The notes below the pieces were generated by a model, which saw nothing but the letters and a program-made list of their open reading frames with translations, made no database searches and had not been told where the DNA came from. From a virus, in the IMG/VR virus record IMGVR_UViG_3300017613_001618, positions 1-5,707 of that record: DNA of 5,707 nt. One strand, written 5' to 3'. Positions 1 through 5,707 of this stretch are shown piece after piece (position 1 is the first letter of the stretch; every line of letters starts with the position of its first letter). The translations under genes and the position numbers were made by a program.

Positions 1-121
1 ACAGCAATTCACAAAGGCGTTAAGGCAAAAAATATACAGAGACAATGTTACAGTTAAGGAAAACAGGGAAAGGTGGCTCAAGGAAGGAGTCACAGGAAAA
101 TGGTCACCAAAATACCGTTAC
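1..121. repeat. Terminal direct repeat, copy 1 (identical to 5587-5707); signature of a circular genome assembled past its start
   Basis: By direct comparison, bases 1-121 (acagcaattcacaaaggcg...aaaataccgttac) equal bases 5587-5707. The reading frame of the Rep gene is continuous across the junction. Confidence 0.95.
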
Positions 122-736
122 TTCACAGTCGGAGAGTACGGTGGTCAAGGAGATCGCCCTCATTACCATATTGTTATGTATAATATTCCTAATGATTACA
201 TTGATACCAACAATTTAACAGGTAAACTATTCTCAGAGACATTAGAAAAAATATGGAACAAAGGCATCATAGATATAGACGAGGTAGCAAGGGGTTCGGC
301 ACACTACATGACAAAACATCACTTATTTCCTTATACGGAAATATGGTTAGAGGACACAGACCGTCAAAAGCCATTCGCAATAATGTCAAAAAAACCCGGA
401 TTAGGCTTAAACTGGATAGATGACAAAATTACTAATTATATTAAAAATTCTAAAAATAGCTATGCAACTCTTAAGGATGGCTCTAAAATCCCAATCGGTA
501 GATACCTCAAAGAAAAGGTCAGAGAAAACCTCAATCAAGAAGAGATATTCAATATCAAAGAGCAATCTCAAAAATATATTGCACAGCAAGAGAAAACAGA
601 ATGGGAATTCTTCGTTAGAGAAGCTCAGGGAGATATCTGGGAGGCTCACAAAAATCTCGGAATTGCACAAGCAGAATTCACTAGAGCAAATCGCAAAAAA
701 GCTATAAGACAACTTAAAAGAAACAACAAATTATGA
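2..736 (+). CDS. VP4: Replication initiator protein (VP4/gpA-like), C-terminal part; same gene as 5339..5707 (total 327 aa on the 5586-nt circle)
   Basis: The frame is open from base 2 (frame 2, continuous with 5339..5707 after subtracting 5586). HUH motif II, PHYHIVMYN, has H-Y-H at 161-169. Motif III, SAHYMTKHH, has the candidate catalytic Tyr at 305-307. The stop is TGA 734-736, overlapping the VP1 start (ATGA). The track ORF 176..736 is only the portion after an internal Met. Confidence 0.9.
   Translation, partial: QQFTKALRQKIYRDNVTVKENRERWLKEGVTGKWSPKYRYFTVGEYGGQGDRPHYHIVMYNIPNDYIDTNNLTGKLFSETLEKIWNKGIIDIDEVARGSAHYMTKHHLFPYTEIWLEDTDRQKPFAIMSKKPGLGLNWIDDKITNYIKNSKNSYATLKDGSKIPIGRYLKEKVRENLNQEEIFNIKEQSQKYIAQQEKTEWEFFVREAQGDIWEAHKNLGIAQAEFTRANRKKAIRQLKRNNKL
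420..707 (+). CDS. Candidate overprinted ORF (95 aa) embedded in the Rep C-terminal region in an alternative frame; hypothetical
   Basis: This is an uninterrupted 95-codon ORF on the coding strand inside Rep. It has a hydrophobic/amphipathic N-terminus (MTKLLIILKILKIAMQLLRMAL) followed by a Lys/Ser-rich basic tail. Microviruses are known for nested genes, but A-rich sequence can also give Lys-rich open frames by chance. I saw no RBS. Confidence 0.2.
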   Translation: MTKLLIILKILKIAMQLLRMALKSQSVDTSKKRSEKTSIKKRYSISKSNLKNILHSKRKQNGNSSLEKLREISGRLTKISELHKQNSLEQIAKKL

Positions 737-2394
737 AAAATGTAATGTTCAGAGAATCACCAGTACCTAGTCCAGGAAAAGGTGCGTTCGATTTATCAAA
801 CGAGGTAGACTTCACAGCACGTATAGGACAATTATTACCAGTTATGTGGCATGAGGTAGTACCGGGAGACAGCTTTCAATTAAGGCACAATATGATTATA
901 AAGTTAGCTCCAATGTTAGCTCCAGTATTTCATAGGTTAAATGCTTATGTACATGATTATTTCGTACCATATAGGTTATTAATGAATCCAATAGGTACAT
1001 CATATGCAGGATGGGAGGATTATATAACAGGAGATGTAGATTCGTTTTATGCAAACGAGGAATTACCATATGTTACAATTAACGATACAAATAAACAGTA
1101 TTTCGATGATATATCGTTATCAGCATATTTAGGACTCCCAATTATAGATTCCGGAACAACAGTATCACAAGATGTAGATATTAATGTATTACCGTTCTTC
1201 GCATATCATCTAATATACAATGAATATTACAGAGACGAAAATTTATGCGGAGCAGTATGTAATAAGCATGCAGGAGGTTCAACAGGAATAGATTTAGTAG
1301 GTGGAGACCATAATGTGGGTATATCGGCAATATGTTTAGAGAGTCCATATCATAGAGCTTATGAAAAGGATTATCTCAGAGGAGCCTTACCAACAGCTTA
1401 CACAGGAGCAGCTTCAGATGTAGAGTTAGATTTGGATGCACCGGATACATTTTATACAAAAGGTCAAGCCACAGGAGCACTTGTAACTGGAGCACCTACA
1501 GCAATGGATATAGACGCTAGTGGTAGAATAGAAATATCTGGAGGAAGTCGTGTTACACTTGATGGCAGTAGTGCAACAAGATTGCCGAGTTCATTAGCAA
1601 CAATAGAAGCAATGGAGTTACGTAGAATGATGGCAGTTACAAGATGGTTAGAAGCAGAGAGAAGAGGAGGAACAAGATATATAGAAATGTTATTAGGAGT
1701 ATGGGGTGTAATAGGAGATAATGCAGAGCTTCAAATTCCACAATACATAGGTGGAGGAAAACAGCCAGTACAGATATCATCAGTATTAAACCAATCTCAG
1801 GTATTAGATCCAACAGCAGGTGTAAACGATGGAGTAGGAGGAGCAGTAGTATCAGTTGATCCACAATCATTAGAAACAGGTAGAGCAATAGCATCAGGAT
1901 CATCAAAACAATCAAGGTTCTATGCAAAAGAACATGGTATTATTATGTCTATATTATCAGTATTACCACGTACAAAGTATGGAGGAGCACAGTTAGAAAG
2001 GTTCTGGCGTAAAGCAGACAGAGAAGATTTCTTCGTACCACAGTTACAAAATATAGGAGATCAATCAATATTACAATCAGAGGCCGGTTATGATGCTACA
2101 GGTACAGATATGGACGATGTATTCGGGTACGCACCAAGATGGTCAGAGTATAAATTCAAAAATTCATATGTAGCAGGATATTTTACAAACTCATTAGATT
2201 ACTGGCATATGGCCACAATAGGAGATACAGCTGGAGCAGGCCCATTATTAAATCAATCATTCATAGAGTGCAACGATCAGGACGACGAAATAACAAGAAT
2301 ATTCGCAAATGAAGTAGGAGAGCAAATATATTGCTTCATTCACAATGACGTAAGAGCAATTAGACCAATGTTCGTACACGATATACCAAAATAA
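733..2394 (+). CDS. VP1: Major capsid protein (Microviridae VP1/gpF family), 553 aa
   Basis: Family-typical blocks recalled from gokushovirus VP1 are present. They include FDLSNE...GQLLPVMWHEVVPGDSF near the N-terminus and LPFFAYHLIYNEYYRDENL. Also present are IEAMELRRMMAVTRWLEAERRGGTRYIEMLLGVWGV...LQIPQYIGGG, EHGIIMSILSVLPRTKY and YAPRWSEYKF. The start overlaps the Rep stop (ATGA at 733-736). Confidence 0.93.
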   Translation: MKNVMFRESPVPSPGKGAFDLSNEVDFTARIGQLLPVMWHEVVPGDSFQLRHNMIIKLAPMLAPVFHRLNAYVHDYFVPYRLLMNPIGTSYAGWEDYITGDVDSFYANEELPYVTINDTNKQYFDDISLSAYLGLPIIDSGTTVSQDVDINVLPFFAYHLIYNEYYRDENLCGAVCNKHAGGSTGIDLVGGDHNVGISAICLESPYHRAYEKDYLRGALPTAYTGAASDVELDLDAPDTFYTKGQATGALVTGAPTAMDIDASGRIEISGGSRVTLDGSSATRLPSSLATIEAMELRRMMAVTRWLEAERRGGTRYIEMLLGVWGVIGDNAELQIPQYIGGGKQPVQISSVLNQSQVLDPTAGVNDGVGGAVVSVDPQSLETGRAIASGSSKQSRFYAKEHGIIMSILSVLPRTKYGGAQLERFWRKADREDFFVPQLQNIGDQSILQSEAGYDATGTDMDDVFGYAPRWSEYKFKNSYVAGYFTNSLDYWHMATIGDTAGAGPLLNQSFIECNDQDDEITRIFANEVGEQIYCFIHNDVRAIRPMFVHDIPK

Positions 2395-2400
2395 AAAACC

Positions 2401-2595
2401 ATGATAGTATACAGAAATCATCAAAATTACCCAACAGATAGGCTAAAGGTCAATCATGTAGAGACACGTAAAAATCCAGAGAAATATGGATATACAGAGG
2501 ATTCAGTAAAAATTCAGACTATACCGGGACAATCTCAATCAGTTAAAGAAATACTAGAAAGAAATAAAAAGGGACGACCAATCATTCAAGAGTAA
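2401..2595 (+). CDS. Hypothetical 64-aa protein; possibly the N-terminal portion of a scaffold (VP3-like) protein
   Basis: The ORF starts 6 nt after the VP1 stop and has core-like A-rich composition. The segment TIPGQSQSVKEILERNKKGRPI resembles, from memory only, a conserved motif near the N-terminus of internal scaffolding proteins of non-phiX microviruses. The ORF ends exactly where the composition changes. Confidence 0.5.
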   Translation: MIVYRNHQNYPTDRLKVNHVETRKNPEKYGYTEDSVKIQTIPGQSQSVKEILERNKKGRPIIQE

Positions 2596-2727
2596 ATGAG
2601 AAGCCTAGGAGATGCATTGTTATGGCAATGTAGTGCATATGGCATGAGTAAGAGACAAGAAAGATTAGTTAGATTTTACGTTAAAGGAAGGAGCGTAGGA
2701 AATAAAAAGCGACATGAAACACAATAG
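2596..2727 (+). CDS. Possible 43-aa ORF, or a relic of a helix-turn-helix gene
   Basis: My own translation is MRSLGDALLWQCSAYGMSKRQERLVRFYVKGRSVGNKKRHETQ*. The ATG abuts the preceding TAA (TAAATG, 2593-2598). MSKRQERLVRFYVKGRS loosely resembles the first half of LuxR/sigma-region-4 type HTH domains, or the N-termini of small terminase subunits, but the recognition helix is missing. It may be non-coding. Confidence 0.2.
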   Translation: MRSLGDALLWQCSAYGMSKRQERLVRFYVKGRSVGNKKRHETQ

Positions 2728-2887
2728 ATGCAGCACATGCGGCTTTGCCGCAGGACACTTCAGAGAGGACCTATTCACAGGATTAATGTTATGTGATGAG
2801 TGCTGGATAAGAAAAAAACATTCTTTCTTTCCAAAACGCAGTCGCATAGCAACATCCAACACTTCTAGTTCGGAACGGCATGGTTAG
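2714..2887 (+). CDS. Small zinc-ribbon protein (57 aa), hypothetical
   Basis: My own translation is MKHNRCSTCGFAAGHFREDLFTGLMLCDECWIRKKHSFFPKRSRIATSNTSSSERHG*. It is below the cutoff of the ORF track. It has two CxxC pairs (C6/C9 and C27/C30) 17 residues apart, followed by a basic tail. It ends 37 nt before the hairpin at 2925-2946. No well-spaced SD is present: AAGGAGC lies about 20 nt upstream. Confidence 0.5.
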   Translation: MKHNRCSTCGFAAGHFREDLFTGLMLCDECWIRKKHSFFPKRSRIATSNTSSSERHG

Positions 2888-2920
2888 GACAGGCCCTGGC
2901 CTCAGTAGCAGGACGATCAT

Positions 2921-2946
2921 AAAAAAAGGCCCCTCACGGGGCCTTT
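2921..2946 (-). terminator. Intrinsic (rho-independent) terminator, strongest in the - orientation; may act bidirectionally between convergent units
   Basis: The stem is AAAGGCCCC (2925-2933) paired with GGGGCCTTT (2938-2946), with loop TCAC. Read on the - strand, the GC stem is followed by seven T (complement of A 2921-2927). It begins 5 nt after the stop of the - strand ORF 2952..3134. On the + strand only TTTAT follows. Confidence 0.8.
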
Positions 2947-2951
2947 ATCAT

Positions 2952-3134
2952 TCAGAAGGGCATATTCAGTTCAAAGTCATCCACAACGCCAGAGCTATAG
3001 TGGATAGAGACGCGAGTAACAGCAGCACGTCTTTCACAGTTATGTGGAACAGCCAAATTCGCGATCTCTTCCTCACATCGCTGCGTACGTCGTAGGAGTT
3101 CTTCCCACTCCCAATGTTCAACTTTCTTCCGCAT
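2952..3134 (-). CDS. Hypothetical 60-aa protein, second gene of the antisense operon
   Basis: The ATG (3134-3132) lies 1 nt after the TGA of the upstream - strand ORF (TGAgATG). GGAGG (complement of 3141-3145) lies 6 nt upstream of the ATG. A terminator follows immediately. I recognise no family for the product MRKKVEHWEWEELLRRTQRCEEEIANLAVPHNCERRAAVTRVSIHYSSGVVDDFELNMPF. Confidence 0.55.
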   Translation of the reverse strand: MRKKVEHWEWEELLRRTQRCEEEIANLAVPHNCERRAAVTRVSIHYSSGVVDDFELNMPF

Positions 3135-3135
3135 C

Positions 3136-3495
3136 TCATCCCTCCGGAATTATATTACGGTCATCATCAAGAGTAAAGCGGCCATAATCAGAACAAGGAA
3201 ATTCAGGCAAAATGGCCAATATATCATCTTCAACTTCACCAGAGGTAACACGCTTAAGCCCGTAATTCATAAAAGGGATGAGAGTACAGAGAGCATCTTC
3301 CTTATTAATATGGAACTCAAGCTTAATAAAGAGAGGAAGGTCATCAGCCGGATCAATGCTTTGACATAGATCATCAGCGGTACAACGTACAAGCTCCAGA
3401 TCAAATTCCAAGCCAAGATCCGGCACAGACCTCTCAAACTCATCATAAAGCTTACGTTCCTTACTAGACAGATTAATCAAATCAAATCTTTCCAT
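3136..3495 (-). CDS. Hypothetical strongly acidic 119-aa protein, first gene of the antisense operon
   Basis: This is the longest ORF in the island and the only long - strand ORF in the window that is not a Leu/Phe-rich antisense shadow. By hand count it has 28 Asp/Glu against 12 Lys/Arg. The amino-acid composition is balanced and protein-like. No SD is present, and the ATG sits very close to promoter-like hexamers. I recognise no family. Confidence 0.7.
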   Translation of the reverse strand: MERFDLINLSSKERKLYDEFERSVPDLGLEFDLELVRCTADDLCQSIDPADDLPLFIKLEFHINKEDALCTLIPFMNYGLKRVTSGEVEDDILAILPEFPCSDYGRFTLDDDRNIIPEG

Positions 3496-3609
3496 AATAC
3501 AGAAATTTAGTTAACGACAACATTGTCAAGCAGATAACAAGCCATTACTCGCCCAAGTCAAGGGTCGCTTTCGCGATTTATATACCCTTTACTTGGAAAA
3601 GAGACAGTA
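3496..3609. promoter_or_regulatory. Divergent intergenic control region between the antisense operon and + strand ORF 3610
   Basis: This 114-nt non-coding gap lies between divergent starts. On the - strand there are two -35-like hexamers, TTGACT (complement of 3556-3561) and TTGACA (complement of 3524-3529). A TAAATT/TAAATTTC element (complement of 3504-3509) lies only about 8 nt before the ATG. Spacings are not canonical for sigma70, so promoter assignment is tentative. Confidence 0.3.
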
Positions 3610-3954
3610 ATGGCTTATATTGCGGAAACAATGAGTCAAATCGCCCAAACATTAAAAGAAACTAACATGACAGAACGAGACGTACGCAAAAGCAAAAATC
3701 AAGAAGAGCAGATAGAAGTTCACTTCACAGACGCAGACTATTCAGACGACTTCAGAGCAGATCCGCTAACAACAATGGATGACATCAAAGAAGAGCGAGA
3801 CGCTATCAATTACAACAAGCAGCAAAGAGCCAATCAAGCGAGCGCGGAGGCAGAGGCCAAGGCCAAGGCCGAGCAAGAAGAGAAGGAAAAGGAGCTAGAG
3901 CGACTAAGAGAATTCGAAAGAAATAATACTCAAAAACCGTTAGGACAACAATAA
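3610..3954 (+). CDS. Hypothetical acidic 114-aa protein with a charged low-complexity/coiled-coil tail; possibly scaffold-related
   Basis: The ORF is on the core coding strand. It has an acidic block, HFTDADYSDDFRADPLTTMDDIKEERD, then ASAEAEAKAKAEQEEKEKELERLREFER (nt 3838-3921). Ala and Arg codons are more GC-rich than in the core genes. Confidence 0.6.
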   Translation: MAYIAETMSQIAQTLKETNMTERDVRKSKNQEEQIEVHFTDADYSDDFRADPLTTMDDIKEERDAINYNKQQRANQASAEAEAKAKAEQEEKEKELERLREFERNNTQKPLGQQ

Positions 3955-3970
3955 AAAAATAAAGGTCATC

Positions 3971-4015
3971 AGCACCATTCACTTGTCTTAATGGTGCTAA
4001 GTGACACTGTCACTT
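3971..4015. other. Two adjacent perfect stem-loops in the intergenic region upstream of VP2
   Basis: Hairpin 1 pairs AGCACCATT (3971-3979) with AATGGTGCT (3990-3998) around a 10-nt loop. Hairpin 2 pairs AAGTGAC (3999-4005) with GTCACTT (4009-4015) around a 3-nt loop and abuts hairpin 1 directly. No T-tract follows on the + strand, so this is not a canonical terminator. Confidence 0.6.
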
Positions 4016-4029
4016 AAAATCAAACAGTT

Positions 4030-4860
4030 ATGGCAATAGGACCAACACATCCACTAGCAAACGCAGCAAAAGGAGCAGCAGCAGGATCATTATTAGGACC
4101 AATCGGCACAGCAGTAGGAGCAGGAGCAAGTATATTAGGATCAGCCTTACAACGCTCATGGCAAAAAAAAATGTGGGATAGACAAAATAGATACAATGCC
4201 CCATCAGCACAAGTAGGACGTTATAGAGACGCAGGTATAAATCCAAATATGGTTATAGGCGGCGGCGGAACTTCAGCCGGTAACGCCGGACCAGTAGGAT
4301 CATATCAAAAAGGAGAAATAGGAGACATAGGAGCCTCCTTCACAAACCAAATGGCTCAATATCAAAACATTAGAAATCAAAAACAGCAGGTAGAGAACAT
4401 GAAATCAGATAAAAATCTGGTAGATAAAAAGGCAATAACAGAAACAGTAAGAGCATTATCAATAGGCGCACAGGCAAATTTATCAAAAGGTCAGTTAAAC
4501 AGGTTAAATAAATTACTCCCCGCAGAAGTATCAAAATACCAATCAGACGCAGAATATGCATCAGATCGTATAGGCTTATTAGAGATTCAAAAAAGGCTAA
4601 CAGAGGGTAAAGTCACAGGACAGACACTATCAAATACATTCCAAACTTTCAAGAACGAGTTATGGGAAGATAATAAAATGACTATGTCAGATGCAACATG
4701 GTTACGTATGTTCACAGGATTCCTAAAAGAAGCAGGAATAAGCGATAAATTACCACAGGTAAAACAATGGATAGAGGAACAAACAAATAAACTTCAAAAT
4801 CTAGGTCAGAACAGACCAGGAGTTAAAAATGGTAAAAATTGGCGAGATCGCCGTAATTAA
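4030..4860 (+). CDS. VP2: Minor capsid / DNA pilot protein (Microviridae VP2-like), 276 aa
   Basis: The N-terminus is Gly/Ala-rich (GAAAGSLLGPIGTAVGAGASILGSAL). It is followed by the block WDRQNRYNAPSAQVGRYRDAGINPNMVIGGG, which matches the YN-P--Q--R---AG-NP motif I recall from gokushovirus VP2 proteins. The C-terminal half is helical and Gln/Lys-rich. Its position after VP1 is typical. Confidence 0.85.
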   Translation: MAIGPTHPLANAAKGAAAGSLLGPIGTAVGAGASILGSALQRSWQKKMWDRQNRYNAPSAQVGRYRDAGINPNMVIGGGGTSAGNAGPVGSYQKGEIGDIGASFTNQMAQYQNIRNQKQQVENMKSDKNLVDKKAITETVRALSIGAQANLSKGQLNRLNKLLPAEVSKYQSDAEYASDRIGLLEIQKRLTEGKVTGQTLSNTFQTFKNELWEDNKMTMSDATWLRMFTGFLKEAGISDKLPQVKQWIEEQTNKLQNLGQNRPGVKNGKNWRDRRN

Positions 4861-4868
4861 AAAAAATC

Positions 4869-5153
4869 ATGACAGAAAAAACAGACAAATTTCCAAACAG
4901 TACAGAAGCAGATGGGCCCTTTCAAGAGGAACAATTAGAAGCAGCCTCATTAAATTTAGCAGAAAGAAAAATTAAAGCATGCGAATACTTAGATGGTCTT
5001 AAAGAGCCAGTAATAGCAACAGTAATAATAGGGCCATCAGAAGCCTTCGATTACAGAAACCTAGCGTTCTGGGAAGGATTTCAACAAAGGGACAGAAACC
5101 TTATAGATAAGTTAAACGAGTGGTTAAACAATAAACGAAAAGGAAAATTATGA
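4869..5153 (+). CDS. Hypothetical 94-aa protein (occupies the position of the internal scaffolding protein VP3 in gokushovirus gene order)
   Basis: The ORF has core-like composition, starts 8 nt after the VP2 stop, and its stop overlaps the next ATG (ATGA, 5150-5153). I recognised no sequence motif. Any functional guess rests on synteny alone. Confidence 0.6.
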   Translation: MTEKTDKFPNSTEADGPFQEEQLEAASLNLAERKIKACEYLDGLKEPVIATVIIGPSEAFDYRNLAFWEGFQQRDRNLIDKLNEWLNNKRKGKL

Positions 5154-5239
5154 ACTGGAAAGACAAGATTATCAAATGGTTAGGGTGGTTAGTAGCAATA
5201 GCTACATGGTTAATAGAGTTATTAACAGATGTAATATAA
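5150..5239 (+). CDS. Candidate 29-aa single-pass membrane peptide
   Basis: My own translation is MNWKDKIIKWLGWLVAIATWLIELLTDVI*. It has a Trp-rich hydrophobic core of about 19 residues. The ATG overlaps the upstream stop (ATGA), suggesting translational coupling. It is too short for the ORF track. Confidence 0.4.
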   Translation: MNWKDKIIKWLGWLVAIATWLIELLTDVI

Positions 5240-5254
5240 AAAAGGAGGTAAAAA

Positions 5255-5338
5255 ATGGCAAGAAGGTTTAGAAGGCGTGGCAGACGCAGTAGAGGTAGAG
5301 GTAAAGTAGTCCTCATTAGAGGCGGTAGACGTAAGTAA
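5255..5338 (+). CDS. Small arginine-rich DNA-binding/packaging peptide (phiX174 J-like, gokushovirus ORF8/VP8-like), 27 aa
   Basis: My own translation is MARRFRRRGRRSRGRGKVVLIRGGRRK*, with 14 of 27 residues Arg/Lys. AAGGAGG at 5242-5248 lies 6 nt upstream of the ATG. The stop abuts the Rep ATG. Its position just upstream of Rep matches ORF8 in chlamydiamicrovirus-type genomes. Confidence 0.7.
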   Translation: MARRFRRRGRRSRGRGKVVLIRGGRRK

Positions 5339-5707
5339 ATGAAATGCGAAAATCCAATCTGGATAGAAGTACACCCAGTAACAAAAGAGCATGTAGGATC
5401 ATATGTTCCTTGTTCGAGATGTTATTCATGTATACAGACAAAGAGATCAGTTTGGACGTTTCGTTTGTTAATGGAGTTAAGGGTAGCGGAGTCAGCATAC
5501 TTCGTTACTCTTACTTACGACCCTCAATCAGTACCATATATAACAGAACAAGGTATAATATACGAGAATCTAGATAAATCACATGTACAGCAATTCACAA
5601 AGGCGTTAAGGCAAAAAATATACAGAGACAATGTTACAGTTAAGGAAAACAGGGAAAGGTGGCTCAAGGAAGGAGTCACAGGAAAATGGTCACCAAAATA
5701 CCGTTAC
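5339..5707 (+). CDS. VP4: Replication initiator protein (HUH rolling-circle endonuclease, microvirus VP4/gpA-like), N-terminal part; runs off the window end and continues at base 2 on the circle
   Basis: My own translation from ATG 5339 is MKCENPIWIEVHPVTKEHVGSYVPCSRCYSCIQTKRSVWTFRLLMELRVAESAYFVTLTYDPQS... It has an N-terminal Cys cluster (C3, C25, C28, C31). HUH motif I, FVTLTYD, lies at 5501-5521. There is no stop to the end of the window. The ATG directly abuts the TAA of the preceding ORF (TAAATG, 5336-5341). The ORF track missed it because it is open-ended. Confidence 0.9.
   Translation, partial: MKCENPIWIEVHPVTKEHVGSYVPCSRCYSCIQTKRSVWTFRLLMELRVAESAYFVTLTYDPQSVPYITEQGIIYENLDKSHVQQFTKALRQKIYRDNVTVKENRERWLKEGVTGKWSPKYRY
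5587..5707. repeat. Terminal direct repeat, copy 2 (identical to 1-121)
   Basis: Same 121-nt string as 1-121. The implied unit genome length is 5586 nt, which fits the Microviridae size range. Confidence 0.95.

Follow-up and report, generated by a model that had tools for sequence, protein, structure and literature searches.

An antisense gene unit headed by a promoter-like hairpin in a microvirus genome

Results

An antisense unit in a circular microvirus genome

We analysed a stretch of viral DNA of 5,707 nucleotides (nt), positions 1 to 5,707 of IMG/VR record IMGVR_UViG_3300017613_001618, referred to here in its whole length as the window, and focused on a pair of minus-strand genes with a terminator behind them and a long hairpin ahead of them. 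Because its last 121 nt repeat the first 121 nt exactly, the window represents a circular microvirus genome of 5,586 nt. Microviruses are treated as strictly unidirectional, with every gene in the virion sense (Kirchberger et al., PMC9239249), and a preliminary description of this DNA, made from its letters only, took the same view of the characterised Microviridae. The open reading frames (ORFs) of that description, the TGAgATG junction that joins them, the GGAGG ahead of the second and the hairpin with a 7-T tail are all present where it had placed them. It missed the hairpin upstream of the first gene, which is the most informative part of the region. The unit comprises the following features.

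3516-3637, plus (virion) strand: long imperfect hairpin of about 120 nt, directly upstream of o119 in the minus sense
3495 to 3136, minus strand: o119, 119 amino acids (aa), first gene of the antisense unit; isoelectric point (pI) 4.2, net charge -16
3139 to 2966, minus strand: o57B (frame B of the second gene), 57 aa; its ATG overlaps the o119 stop as ATGA
3134 to 2952, minus strand: o60A (frame A of the second gene), 60 aa; joined to o119 as TGAgATG, with its stop 5 nt before the terminator
2946 to 2925, minus strand: intrinsic terminator AAAGGCCCC-GTGA-GGGGCCTTT, with a 9-bp stem (6 G-C) and 7 T, 5 nt after the o60A stop

o119 is a conserved minus-strand gene

An ATG-initiated ORF of at least 119 aa arose in 0.8% of 3,000 dinucleotide shuffles of 2921-3609, and three-base periodicity per codon is stronger across o119 than anywhere else in the genome (chi2 46.8, p 2e-8). 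Its codons are rich in G at the first position, as real genes are, and have 55% T and 12% A at the third, whereas third positions of the plus-strand genes are 42-58% A; seen from the virion strand, its silent sites thus share the A-richness of the rest of the genome. Third-position bias in this genome follows the DNA strand and not the mRNA, a mirrored pattern that fits, in a supportive way only, strand-level compositional pressure on a gene that has long been in antisense orientation. The direction of the bias differs between related viruses: in L033, a relative introduced below (L numbers denote genomes and loci), the third positions of plus genes are rich in T (46% for the capsid gene), and the antisense gene is flat.

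The preliminary description had proposed a search for the unit among other microviruses. L033 (JGI 3300079459; 5,142 nt), which groups with the window in the capsid tree, carries an o119 homologue at 4889 to 4479 in the same position and orientation (136 aa, 28% identity; Smith-Waterman score 73 against 28.8 ± 5.1 in shuffles, z 8.7, 0/2000). The homologue is also acidic, with a pI of 4.6 and a net charge of -14. Since the two capsid proteins are only 54% identical, the antisense gene has kept its position and orientation across a large divergence. After the capsid gene, L033 is ordered as follows.

L033, plus strand: homologue of the 64-aa gene
L033, plus strand: zinc-ribbon gene
L033, minus orientation: hairpin with 7 T
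L033, minus strand: 57-aa ORF
L033, minus strand: 136-aa ORF, the o119 homologue
L033: long hairpin

The antisense cargo is thus not unique to the window genome, and o119 is a genuine, conserved minus-strand coding gene.

o119 could be matched to no family in Pfam, PHROGs, NCBIfam, PADLOC or PDB sequences, in keeping with the preliminary description, which recognised no family for either protein. Each of the two antisense proteins gave only a self-match in a word search of 5.8 billion proteins and a HMMER scan of 1.84 billion representatives, tblastn of the antisense proteins against 50,697 phage records returned no homologue, and a two-sequence o119 profile found no further relatives in IMG/VR. 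One apparent hit, a cadherin-like repeat adhesin of 5,000 aa (P0003; HMMER E 1.3e-8), was rejected: its score is the sum of about ten weak repeat matches of about 10 bits each, the best single repeat reaches 10 bits (i-E 8e4, bias 38), and no other such repeat protein was matched. Structure comparison, which had been proposed alongside profile searches, went only part of the way, since the o119 model was too poor and the o60A model found no match in Foldseek. From its composition, the o119 product is predicted to be a very acidic, soluble cytoplasmic protein, and we saw no recognisable DNA-binding domain in it.

We considered whether these ORFs might be non-functional, that is, chance frames in a spacer, a decaying captured fragment or an assembly artefact. 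The lack of homologues other than L033 in very large protein libraries, the non-significance of the 60-aa ORF on its own and the low AlphaFold confidence for o119 are what such an origin would produce. It is nevertheless highly improbable given the periodicity of o119 together with the ORF-length test, a protein homologue at the same place and in the same orientation in a genome with 54% capsid identity, and a terminator and hairpin in L033 that match those of the window. The sequence from 1634 to 4044, with both edges of the island that holds the unit, recurs at 100% identity in a second contig, L007 (JGI 3300017527). Circular closure, this identical contig and the same arrangement in the divergent L033 make an assembly artefact very unlikely, which answers the concern of the preliminary description that the assembly might be chimeric.

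Two overlapping frames for the second gene

Two minus-strand frames compete as the second gene. The codons of o60A show the same pattern as o119, with G at first and T at third positions, and a GGAGG at 3145-3141 lies 6 nt before its ATG. The frame by itself is not significant in the test for three-base periodicity (p 0.17). A single-sequence AlphaFold model (pLDDT 72) shows a helix plus a beta-hairpin, for which Foldseek returned nothing below E 0.7 against PDB and BFVD; o60A has no counterpart frame in L033 (z -0.3) and no homologue in the sequence libraries. o57B encodes a basic N-terminal part followed by a C-terminal hydrophobic helix (pI 11.0). Its counterpart in L033 (4516 to 4343) is also 57 aa long and has the same architecture, with a hydrophobic segment starting at residue 38-39 in both (KD17 2.3 and 2.9) and a similarity of p 0.016-0.035 under two shuffle nulls. 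The second gene of L033 has a single open frame, and it is of the frame-B type. Against o57B, its second codon positions are T-rich, codon-position composition fits frame A better, and spurious hydrophobic ORFs are frequent on the T-rich minus strand. Frame B is somewhat more likely than frame A to be the second gene, and frame A or both are also possible; the product is probably a small membrane-anchored (tail-anchored) protein, judging from the sequence.

The GGAGG is weak evidence: none of the other genes in the window has one, and the phylum to which the host probably belongs works without Shine-Dalgarno sequences. The motif occurs 12 times in the window, the other 11 preceding no gene. 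The host is probably a member of the Bacteroidota, for which translation without Shine-Dalgarno sequences has been described (PMC6847099; PMC9723704), and the GGAGG is probably irrelevant to o60A. The 3' end of o119, shortly before the second gene, contains a sigma-70-like site on the minus strand, TTTACT-17-TATAAT (10/12) at 3177-3149; the match is probably due to chance, and the GGAGG would be missing from any transcript started there.

The terminator has an equivalent in L033, a minus-oriented hairpin with 7 T at about 4339 to 4302, 3 nt after the 57-aa ORF. A terminator scan of the whole window found 4 against 3.1 expected by chance, and the one at 2925-2946 is by far the best, yet it is one hit in that scan. 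Plus-strand transcripts running towards it may be stopped there too (plus-strand tail TTTATCATT). Of the three independent signals on which the preliminary description had based the unit, the GGAGG and the 60-aa frame are the weakest and may be wrong.

The order of an acidic protein (pI 4.2) and then a small basic one (pI 11.0), with an ATGA overlap if frame B is real, also recalls a toxin-antitoxin or addiction, lysis or superinfection-exclusion module, with the basic membrane protein as the presumed effector, partnered or regulated by the acidic one. The conserved position of the C-terminal hydrophobic helix in L033 and the autonomy of a unit with its own terminator would suit such a module, and small membrane toxins with protein partners exist, for example GhoT/GhoS. 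It is an unlikely explanation in our judgement: o119, o60A and o57B have no toxin, antitoxin, holin or defence match, type II toxin-antitoxin domains included, in Pfam, NCBIfam, PADLOC and PHROGs; o119 lacks a recognisable DNA-binding domain; and the membrane frame is itself uncertain, with codon composition on the side of frame A and hydrophobic ORFs commonly spurious on this T-rich strand. Our leading hypothesis for the unit, by analogy with systems compared below, is an establishment or anti-defence role.

The unit lies in an accessory island

The unit is carried by an island, an insertion that the window shares with L033, placed exactly between two conserved genes.

2596-3609: island of 1,014 nt, between the 64-aa gene (2401-2595) and the 114-aa gene (3610-3954); absent from L008

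In L008, the closest relative by DNA patterns (capsid 53% identical), the homologues of the two flanking genes are 57 nt apart. At the island centre (about 2700-3300) G+C rises to 45-50%, from 33-39% in most of the genome, and the sign of the GC skew flips across the island. A capsid search of the 5.8-billion-protein collection defined a clade of about 35 relatives with 44-61% identity, whose full-length contigs measure 4.7-5.3 kb, compared with 5,586 nt for the window genome. The antisense unit is absent from seven of the eight other clade genomes (L008, L027, L028, L029, L030, L032 and L034), and the gene calls of L027 to L030, L032, L034 and the partial contig L031 are all on one strand. 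With the o119 homologue in place in L033 and the unit missing from these seven relatives, the proposal of an accessory unit under selection is upheld, and we conclude that the antisense unit is real, conserved, accessory and selected.

A long hairpin heads the unit

The hairpin spans the 114-nt gap between o119 and the next plus-strand gene plus the first bases of that gene, and has the following parts.

3543-3603, plus strand: conserved core, consisting of an outer stem, GTCAAGGG, a mini-hairpin CGC-TTTC-GCG, an unpaired TTTATATA, CCCTT(T/G)AC and the outer stem again
3593-3623, plus strand: promoter-like boxes in the far (right) arm, TTGGAA-17-TATATT (sigma-70 type, 9/12)
3616-3623, plus strand: TATATTGC, which fits the Bacteroidota variant box TAnnTTGY

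Folded as single-stranded DNA (ssDNA), 3516-3637 reaches -26 kcal/mol (z -6.4, 0/200 shuffles) and is the most stable 130-nt fold in the genome. L033 has an equivalent at 4940-5062 (z -5.35). The lower stems of the two hairpins are unrelated in sequence and have kept their complementarity (AAGCCATTACT/AGTAATGGCTT in the window, GCTTACTCAAT/ATTGAGTGAGC in L033), whereas the apical core is nearly identical in both, CAAGTCAAGGG-Y-CGC-loop-GCG-R-TTTATATACCCTT-K-AC. Among the clade relatives searched, including the partial contig L031, our covariance model R1 found the core in the window and L033 only. R1 scores the window core at 52.9 bits (E 6e-15), partly by construction because the window is in the seed alignment; the exact-pattern match at 3557-3589 is independent of the model.

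TAnnTTGY is a described variant of the Bacteroidota -7 box (PMC9723704). The boxes of relatives are stronger: TTGACA-17-TACCTTTG in L033, TATCTTTG in L035 and TACTTTTG in L077. No site in the window fits the strict promoter pattern of Bacteroidota, TTTG-N17-23-TAnnTTTG.

The right arm overlaps the annotated ATG of the 114-aa gene (3610), which lies inside the arm and upstream of the far-arm RNA start predicted near 3628, and the conserved part of the protein begins near residue 39. Since the predicted duplex start falls 3 nt before the second Met codon, the true start of the gene may be Met8 (3631) or Met20 (3667).

In the relatives without the motif (L008, L027-L029, L030, L032 and L034), the most stable ssDNA fold also lies between the capsid and pilot genes, at -26 to -37 kcal/mol per 130 nt and with unrelated sequences. 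These folds are candidate complementary-strand origins that differ between lineages.

A covarying hairpin family across Bacteroidota elements and viruses

We scanned a bacterial collection with one genome per species for the pattern GTCAAGGG-N9-15-TTTATATACCCTT. It occurs exactly in 32 bacterial stretches (L036-L067), about 20 of them in Pedobacter, Mucilaginibacter, Sphingobacterium and other Bacteroidota. The loci are mostly from Sphingobacteriaceae, and the remainder include Lachnospiraceae, Oscillospiraceae, Treponema, Dolichospermum and an alphaproteobacterial metagenome-assembled genome. Besides the window and L033, viral contigs with the motif are the microvirus-like L035 and L077 and also L080-L082 and L084, the last with three copies. 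All four microvirus-like genomes have the motif on the capsid-sense strand.

Almost every instance folds into a hairpin of 110-185 nt, in whose stem the layout GTCAAGGG / mini-hairpin / TTTATATA / CCCTTGAC recurs. In an alignment of 29 sequences, 83.9% of cells in the outer stem, conserved stem and mini-hairpin are paired (64.3% in shuffles), compensatory double changes affect 13 of 21 pairs (133 cells), and the covariation score is 0.456; shuffles gave 0.129 (0/500) and slid controls no more than 0.131. Rfam holds no family matching the core, and a search of the available literature returned no paper on such a hairpin-promoter family or on an ssDNA promoter in Bacteroidota; the family is apparently undescribed.

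The conserved right half of the core ends in TTGAC, a -33/-35 box. A perfect TAnnTTTG or TATAAT box follows in the right arm, 15-19 nt after TTGAC, in 15 of 34 instances, and at the mirrored position on the other strand in none of the 34. Box type follows the host, with TAnnTTTG in Bacteroidota, L033, L035 and L077 and TATAAT in the Lachnospiraceae element; TAnnTTTG is the Bacteroidota sigma-A -7 box, located at -12 to -5 (PMC9723704). In several members the box lies opposite non-complementary bases, with 6-7 of its 8 positions unpaired in L033, L041, L046, L052 and L053. Genes show the opposite asymmetry. Of the bacterial loci, 26 have enough flanking DNA on either side for a comparison. An ORF of 50 aa or more lies to the left on the opposite strand in 16 of these, its ATG 39-93 nt from the core with a cluster at 44-53, and to the right on the same strand in 2.

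Several bacterial loci bear conjugation genes. The leftward operon of L051 encodes a 200-aa protein without annotation, a MobC-like protein, a relaxase (PF03432, 5.7e-26) and a type IV secretion system coupling protein, and L067 has a relaxase at 5.6e-34. The gene most commonly served by the motif encodes a conserved protein of 192-200 aa (L037, L042, L046, L048, L050-L053, L061 and L062), 44-53 nt to the left, with the pattern MEKFALTLQS...GFG...GPNG.W.Y...GTAGSS...NRE.AL...TTNY...LF and no match in Pfam or NCBIfam. This gene is a candidate for an early establishment function in conjugative elements of Bacteroidota. In one group of loci of the Mucilaginibacter type (L053, +120..+698; L041, L046, L052, L055), a gene that runs towards the motif from the right encodes both DUF3276 and, at the N terminus, a UPF0758 (RadC-like) domain, and is followed by a gene for a 140-aa zinc-finger protein, a set that recalls the anti-restriction or establishment islands of other mobile elements.

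Other functions were considered for the core. It is unlikely to be a Rep nick origin or an oriT, being absent from relatives with homologous Rep proteins, common to phyla with different relaxases and equipped with promoter boxes of the host type. As a dif-like integration site its arms would be about 20 nt apart and not 6.

A putative single-strand promoter

With the boxes on the far arm and the gene beyond the near arm on the opposite strand, this layout can drive the gene only as folded ssDNA. In the folded strand, the box-bearing far arm would be the non-template strand and the near arm the template, and RNA polymerase would run from apex to base and then along the single strand into the left-hand gene. 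Microviruses package the capsid-sense strand. The injected virion strand itself would then serve as the template for the antisense genes, which could be expressed on entry, before the complementary strand is made. At the duplex stage the same boxes would point away from the unit, towards the plus-strand genes. For the window, the folded form predicts an RNA that starts near 3526 with a 31-nt leader to the o119 ATG, and the duplex form an RNA that starts near 3628. For the bacterial loci, a start 5 nt after the box would give leaders of about 10-20 nt, a length that is normal for Bacteroidota (PMC9723704).

A single-strand promoter mechanism is likely for the hairpin family as a whole, on the geometry of its boxes and genes. 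For the window genome, we put the chance that a hairpin promoter of this kind, resembling the Frpo promoter of plasmids, gives immediate-early antisense expression from the virion strand at about one half, because the window has the weakest boxes of the family and a mediocre duplex promoter on the minus strand.

Several observations weigh against the single-strand promoter. Within the window, the far-arm boxes are the weakest of the family, with TATATTGC 22 nt from TTTACT, and 62 nt separate the o119 ATG from the core, more than the 44-53 nt seen in bacteria. Only the window genome shows a clean mirror-image bias at third positions; L033 does not. AlphaFold confidence for o119 is low (pLDDT 50), and the model went unused for fold search; no link from either antisense protein to a function emerged from the searches made. 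Transcription of ssDNA is deduced throughout from geometry alone, and wobble counts do not single out the folding strand (G.T 19 versus A.C 13, p 0.38). Complementary-strand synthesis is fast in microviruses and may leave a short period for transcription of ssDNA. The mediocre minus-strand promoter candidate, TTGACT-16-TGTTAT, could serve in the replicative form. Finally, the motif must have another role in L035 and L077, since no antisense gene is present there, and this role, as a plus-gene promoter or in complementary-strand priming, could by itself explain the motif in the window.

The last two points lead to a different account, in which the unit is an ordinary moron, an antisense operon read from a conventional minus-strand promoter in replicative-form DNA, and the hairpin is a promoter for plus genes, a complementary-strand origin or both. 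The candidate promoter lies at 3561 to 3534, L033 has TTGACT-18-TAAGAT (9/12) at 4978 to 4949, and in L035 and L077 plus genes lie behind the motif at sensible distances. A strong hairpin is present in every relative at some point between the capsid and VP2 genes, and the island, with its raised G+C, own terminator and patchy distribution, looks like that of a moron. We regard this account as doubtful. The mirrored minus strand never carries a perfect -7/-10 box (0/34 versus 15/34), and genes nonetheless cluster on the side without perfect boxes (16 versus 2). The TGTTAT of the window lacks the conserved A at position 2 and failed the sigma-70 scan, in which no promoter was found upstream of o119. 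Arm complementarity over 110-185 nt, kept by compensatory change, would stay unexplained.

We tentatively suggest, while holding it at less than an even chance, that one promoter may act in two directions: as an ssDNA hairpin it would drive the antisense early genes and might prime the complementary strand, and in the duplex its boxes would fire into the structural genes. The hairpins would then form an undescribed class of ssDNA promoter common to Bacteroidota conjugative elements and microviruses, and antisense coding would be an adaptation for expression before replication.

Genome setting and neighbouring genes

The remaining genes of the window are on the plus strand.

5339 to 736, across the window ends, plus strand: HUH replication initiator, 327 aa, with an HYH motif; phrog_942
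733-2394, plus strand: major capsid protein F, 553 aa; PF02305 at 2.7e-61, phrog_514 at 1.8e-107
2401-2595, plus strand: gene for a 64-aa protein, conserved in relatives
2596-2727, plus strand: 43-aa ORF, directly after the 64-aa gene
2714-2887, plus strand: zinc-ribbon gene (CxxC...CxxC), converging on the antisense-unit terminator and outside the antisense unit
3610-3954, plus strand: gene for a 114-aa protein, conserved in relatives
4030-4860, plus strand: pilot protein; phrog_8689 at 2.5e-20
4869-5153, plus strand: gene for a 94-aa protein

The PF02305 capsid, pilot protein, HUH Rep and small circle bear out the identification as a microvirus made in the preliminary description. In tblastn, 3,631 microvirus records match the window capsid; the best GenBank microviruses reach 34-37% identity, and megablast of the window against the 50,697 phage records gave no match; the virus is distant from deposited microviruses. 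The one-strand gene layout does not hold in the window, where o119 is a coding gene on the opposite strand that is conserved in L033. That layout is a property ascribed to Microviridae and does not decide membership.

Zinc-ribbon homologues follow the capsid gene in L033 (4105-4260; 61% over 38 aa, E 1e-14), L032 (1887-2090) and L034 (4297-4476), the latter two of which have no antisense genes, and by its distribution the gene is a clade accessory gene. Its product has sub-threshold matches only, to Lar restriction alleviation (E 0.008 in two members) and TraR/DksA (E 0.019). The 43-aa ORF, which has no equivalent in L033, holds a 74%-identical copy of the 3' end of the 64-aa gene (2542-2575 and 2680-2713, VKEILERNKKGRP versus VKGRSVGNKKRH), a repeat that looks like the scar of a recombination that built the island. 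Insertion of a mobile element is unsupported, as no flanking direct or inverted repeats resembling target duplications were seen. Among the relatives, L030 (ENA ERZ26869290 ctg352915; 12,128 nt) is a head-to-tail concatemer of about 2.4 copies of a microvirus genome of about 5.1 kb, the copies differing slightly in gene calls; it may have arisen by rolling-circle replication or through the assembly of a circular genome.

Discussion

The antisense unit runs counter to a working rule of microvirus genomics. In large curation efforts, reverse orientation is by itself a reason to delete a gene (PMC9239249), and such units are therefore systematically lost from reference sets; our literature search on antisense genes in microviruses found no such report. 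The reading of the hairpin offers a possible reason for an ssDNA phage to place genes on the other strand: only those are templated by the DNA that enters the cell. The promoter-like element heading the unit makes the finding more interesting than first proposed. What appears to be new is a covarying hairpin-promoter family, adapted to its host phylum, outside Rfam and near genes for relaxases, MobC and coupling proteins. If the family works on ssDNA, the Frpo principle, so far one of enterobacterial plasmids, would also hold for elements of Bacteroidota and for phages, and the motif would flag early establishment genes that have gone unannotated, including the 192-200-aa family.

Frpo is the closest comparison. 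It is a hairpin ssDNA promoter of plasmid leading regions (F and ColIb-P9; Masai and Arai 1997, cited in PMC11541004), and for it a structure that mimics a promoter, an orientation bias of early genes and experimental strand dependence have been reported, with a cargo of establishment and anti-defence genes expressed from the incoming strand of conjugative plasmids (PMC11541004). As in Frpo and ssi elements, a long hairpin in the entering strand would rebuild a duplex-like promoter with -35 and -10 boxes, the genes are oriented with the entering strand as template (o119, the L033 gene and 16 of 26 bacterial loci against 2 of 26), and the associated elements pass through a single-stranded stage. 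The -7 box opposite non-complementary bases in several members is a further likeness, and so would be a cargo of small establishment or anti-defence genes. Boxes of the Frpo type on the non-template arm are present in 15 of 34 family instances against 0 of 34, the window having only TTGGAA-17-TATATT (9/12) and TATATTGC. The hairpin family differs in having its own invariant core (GTCAAGGG ... TTTATATACCCTT) and a covarying mini-hairpin, and no sequence similarity to Frpo is expected. Its boxes are mostly of the Bacteroidota sigma-A type (TAnnTTTG), and the window element belongs to a phage and not a plasmid, and is known here from sequence alone.

The minus-strand origin of M13/f1 and origins of the ssoA type also place a promoter-mimicking hairpin in a packaged or displaced single strand. 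As there, the RNA from our hairpins would have the polarity of the complementary strand and could also prime DNA synthesis, a role that would account for L035 and L077, where the motif stands without antisense genes. Those origins make a short primer only and precede no gene, whereas the hairpin base is closely followed by the start of an ORF in the window and in 16 of 26 bacterial loci. In phiX174 and G4, complementary-strand priming is by primosome or primase and not by RNA polymerase.

The o119 product resembles the DNA mimics Ocr and ArdA in being small, with about 24% Asp+Glu, and highly acidic (net charge -16, pI 4.2), and in its predicted early expression; the L033 homologue is acidic too (pI 4.6, charge -14). 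It differs in lacking sequence similarity to them, and its model (pLDDT 50) is too poor for a fold comparison. The resemblance is one of composition only, and we treat it as a lead that makes DNA-mimic action of o119 a possibility.

In the prevailing view, microviruses have no reverse-oriented genes and a very small accessory repertoire (PMC9239249). The antisense unit is closest in general form to the morons of tailed phages: it is self-contained, with its own terminator, atypical G+C and a putative promoter of its own, it is set between two conserved genes, and its presence among relatives is patchy, with seven of them lacking it. It differs from morons in its setting, a 5.6-kb ssDNA phage, and in its orientation, which is opposite to that of every other gene in the genome.

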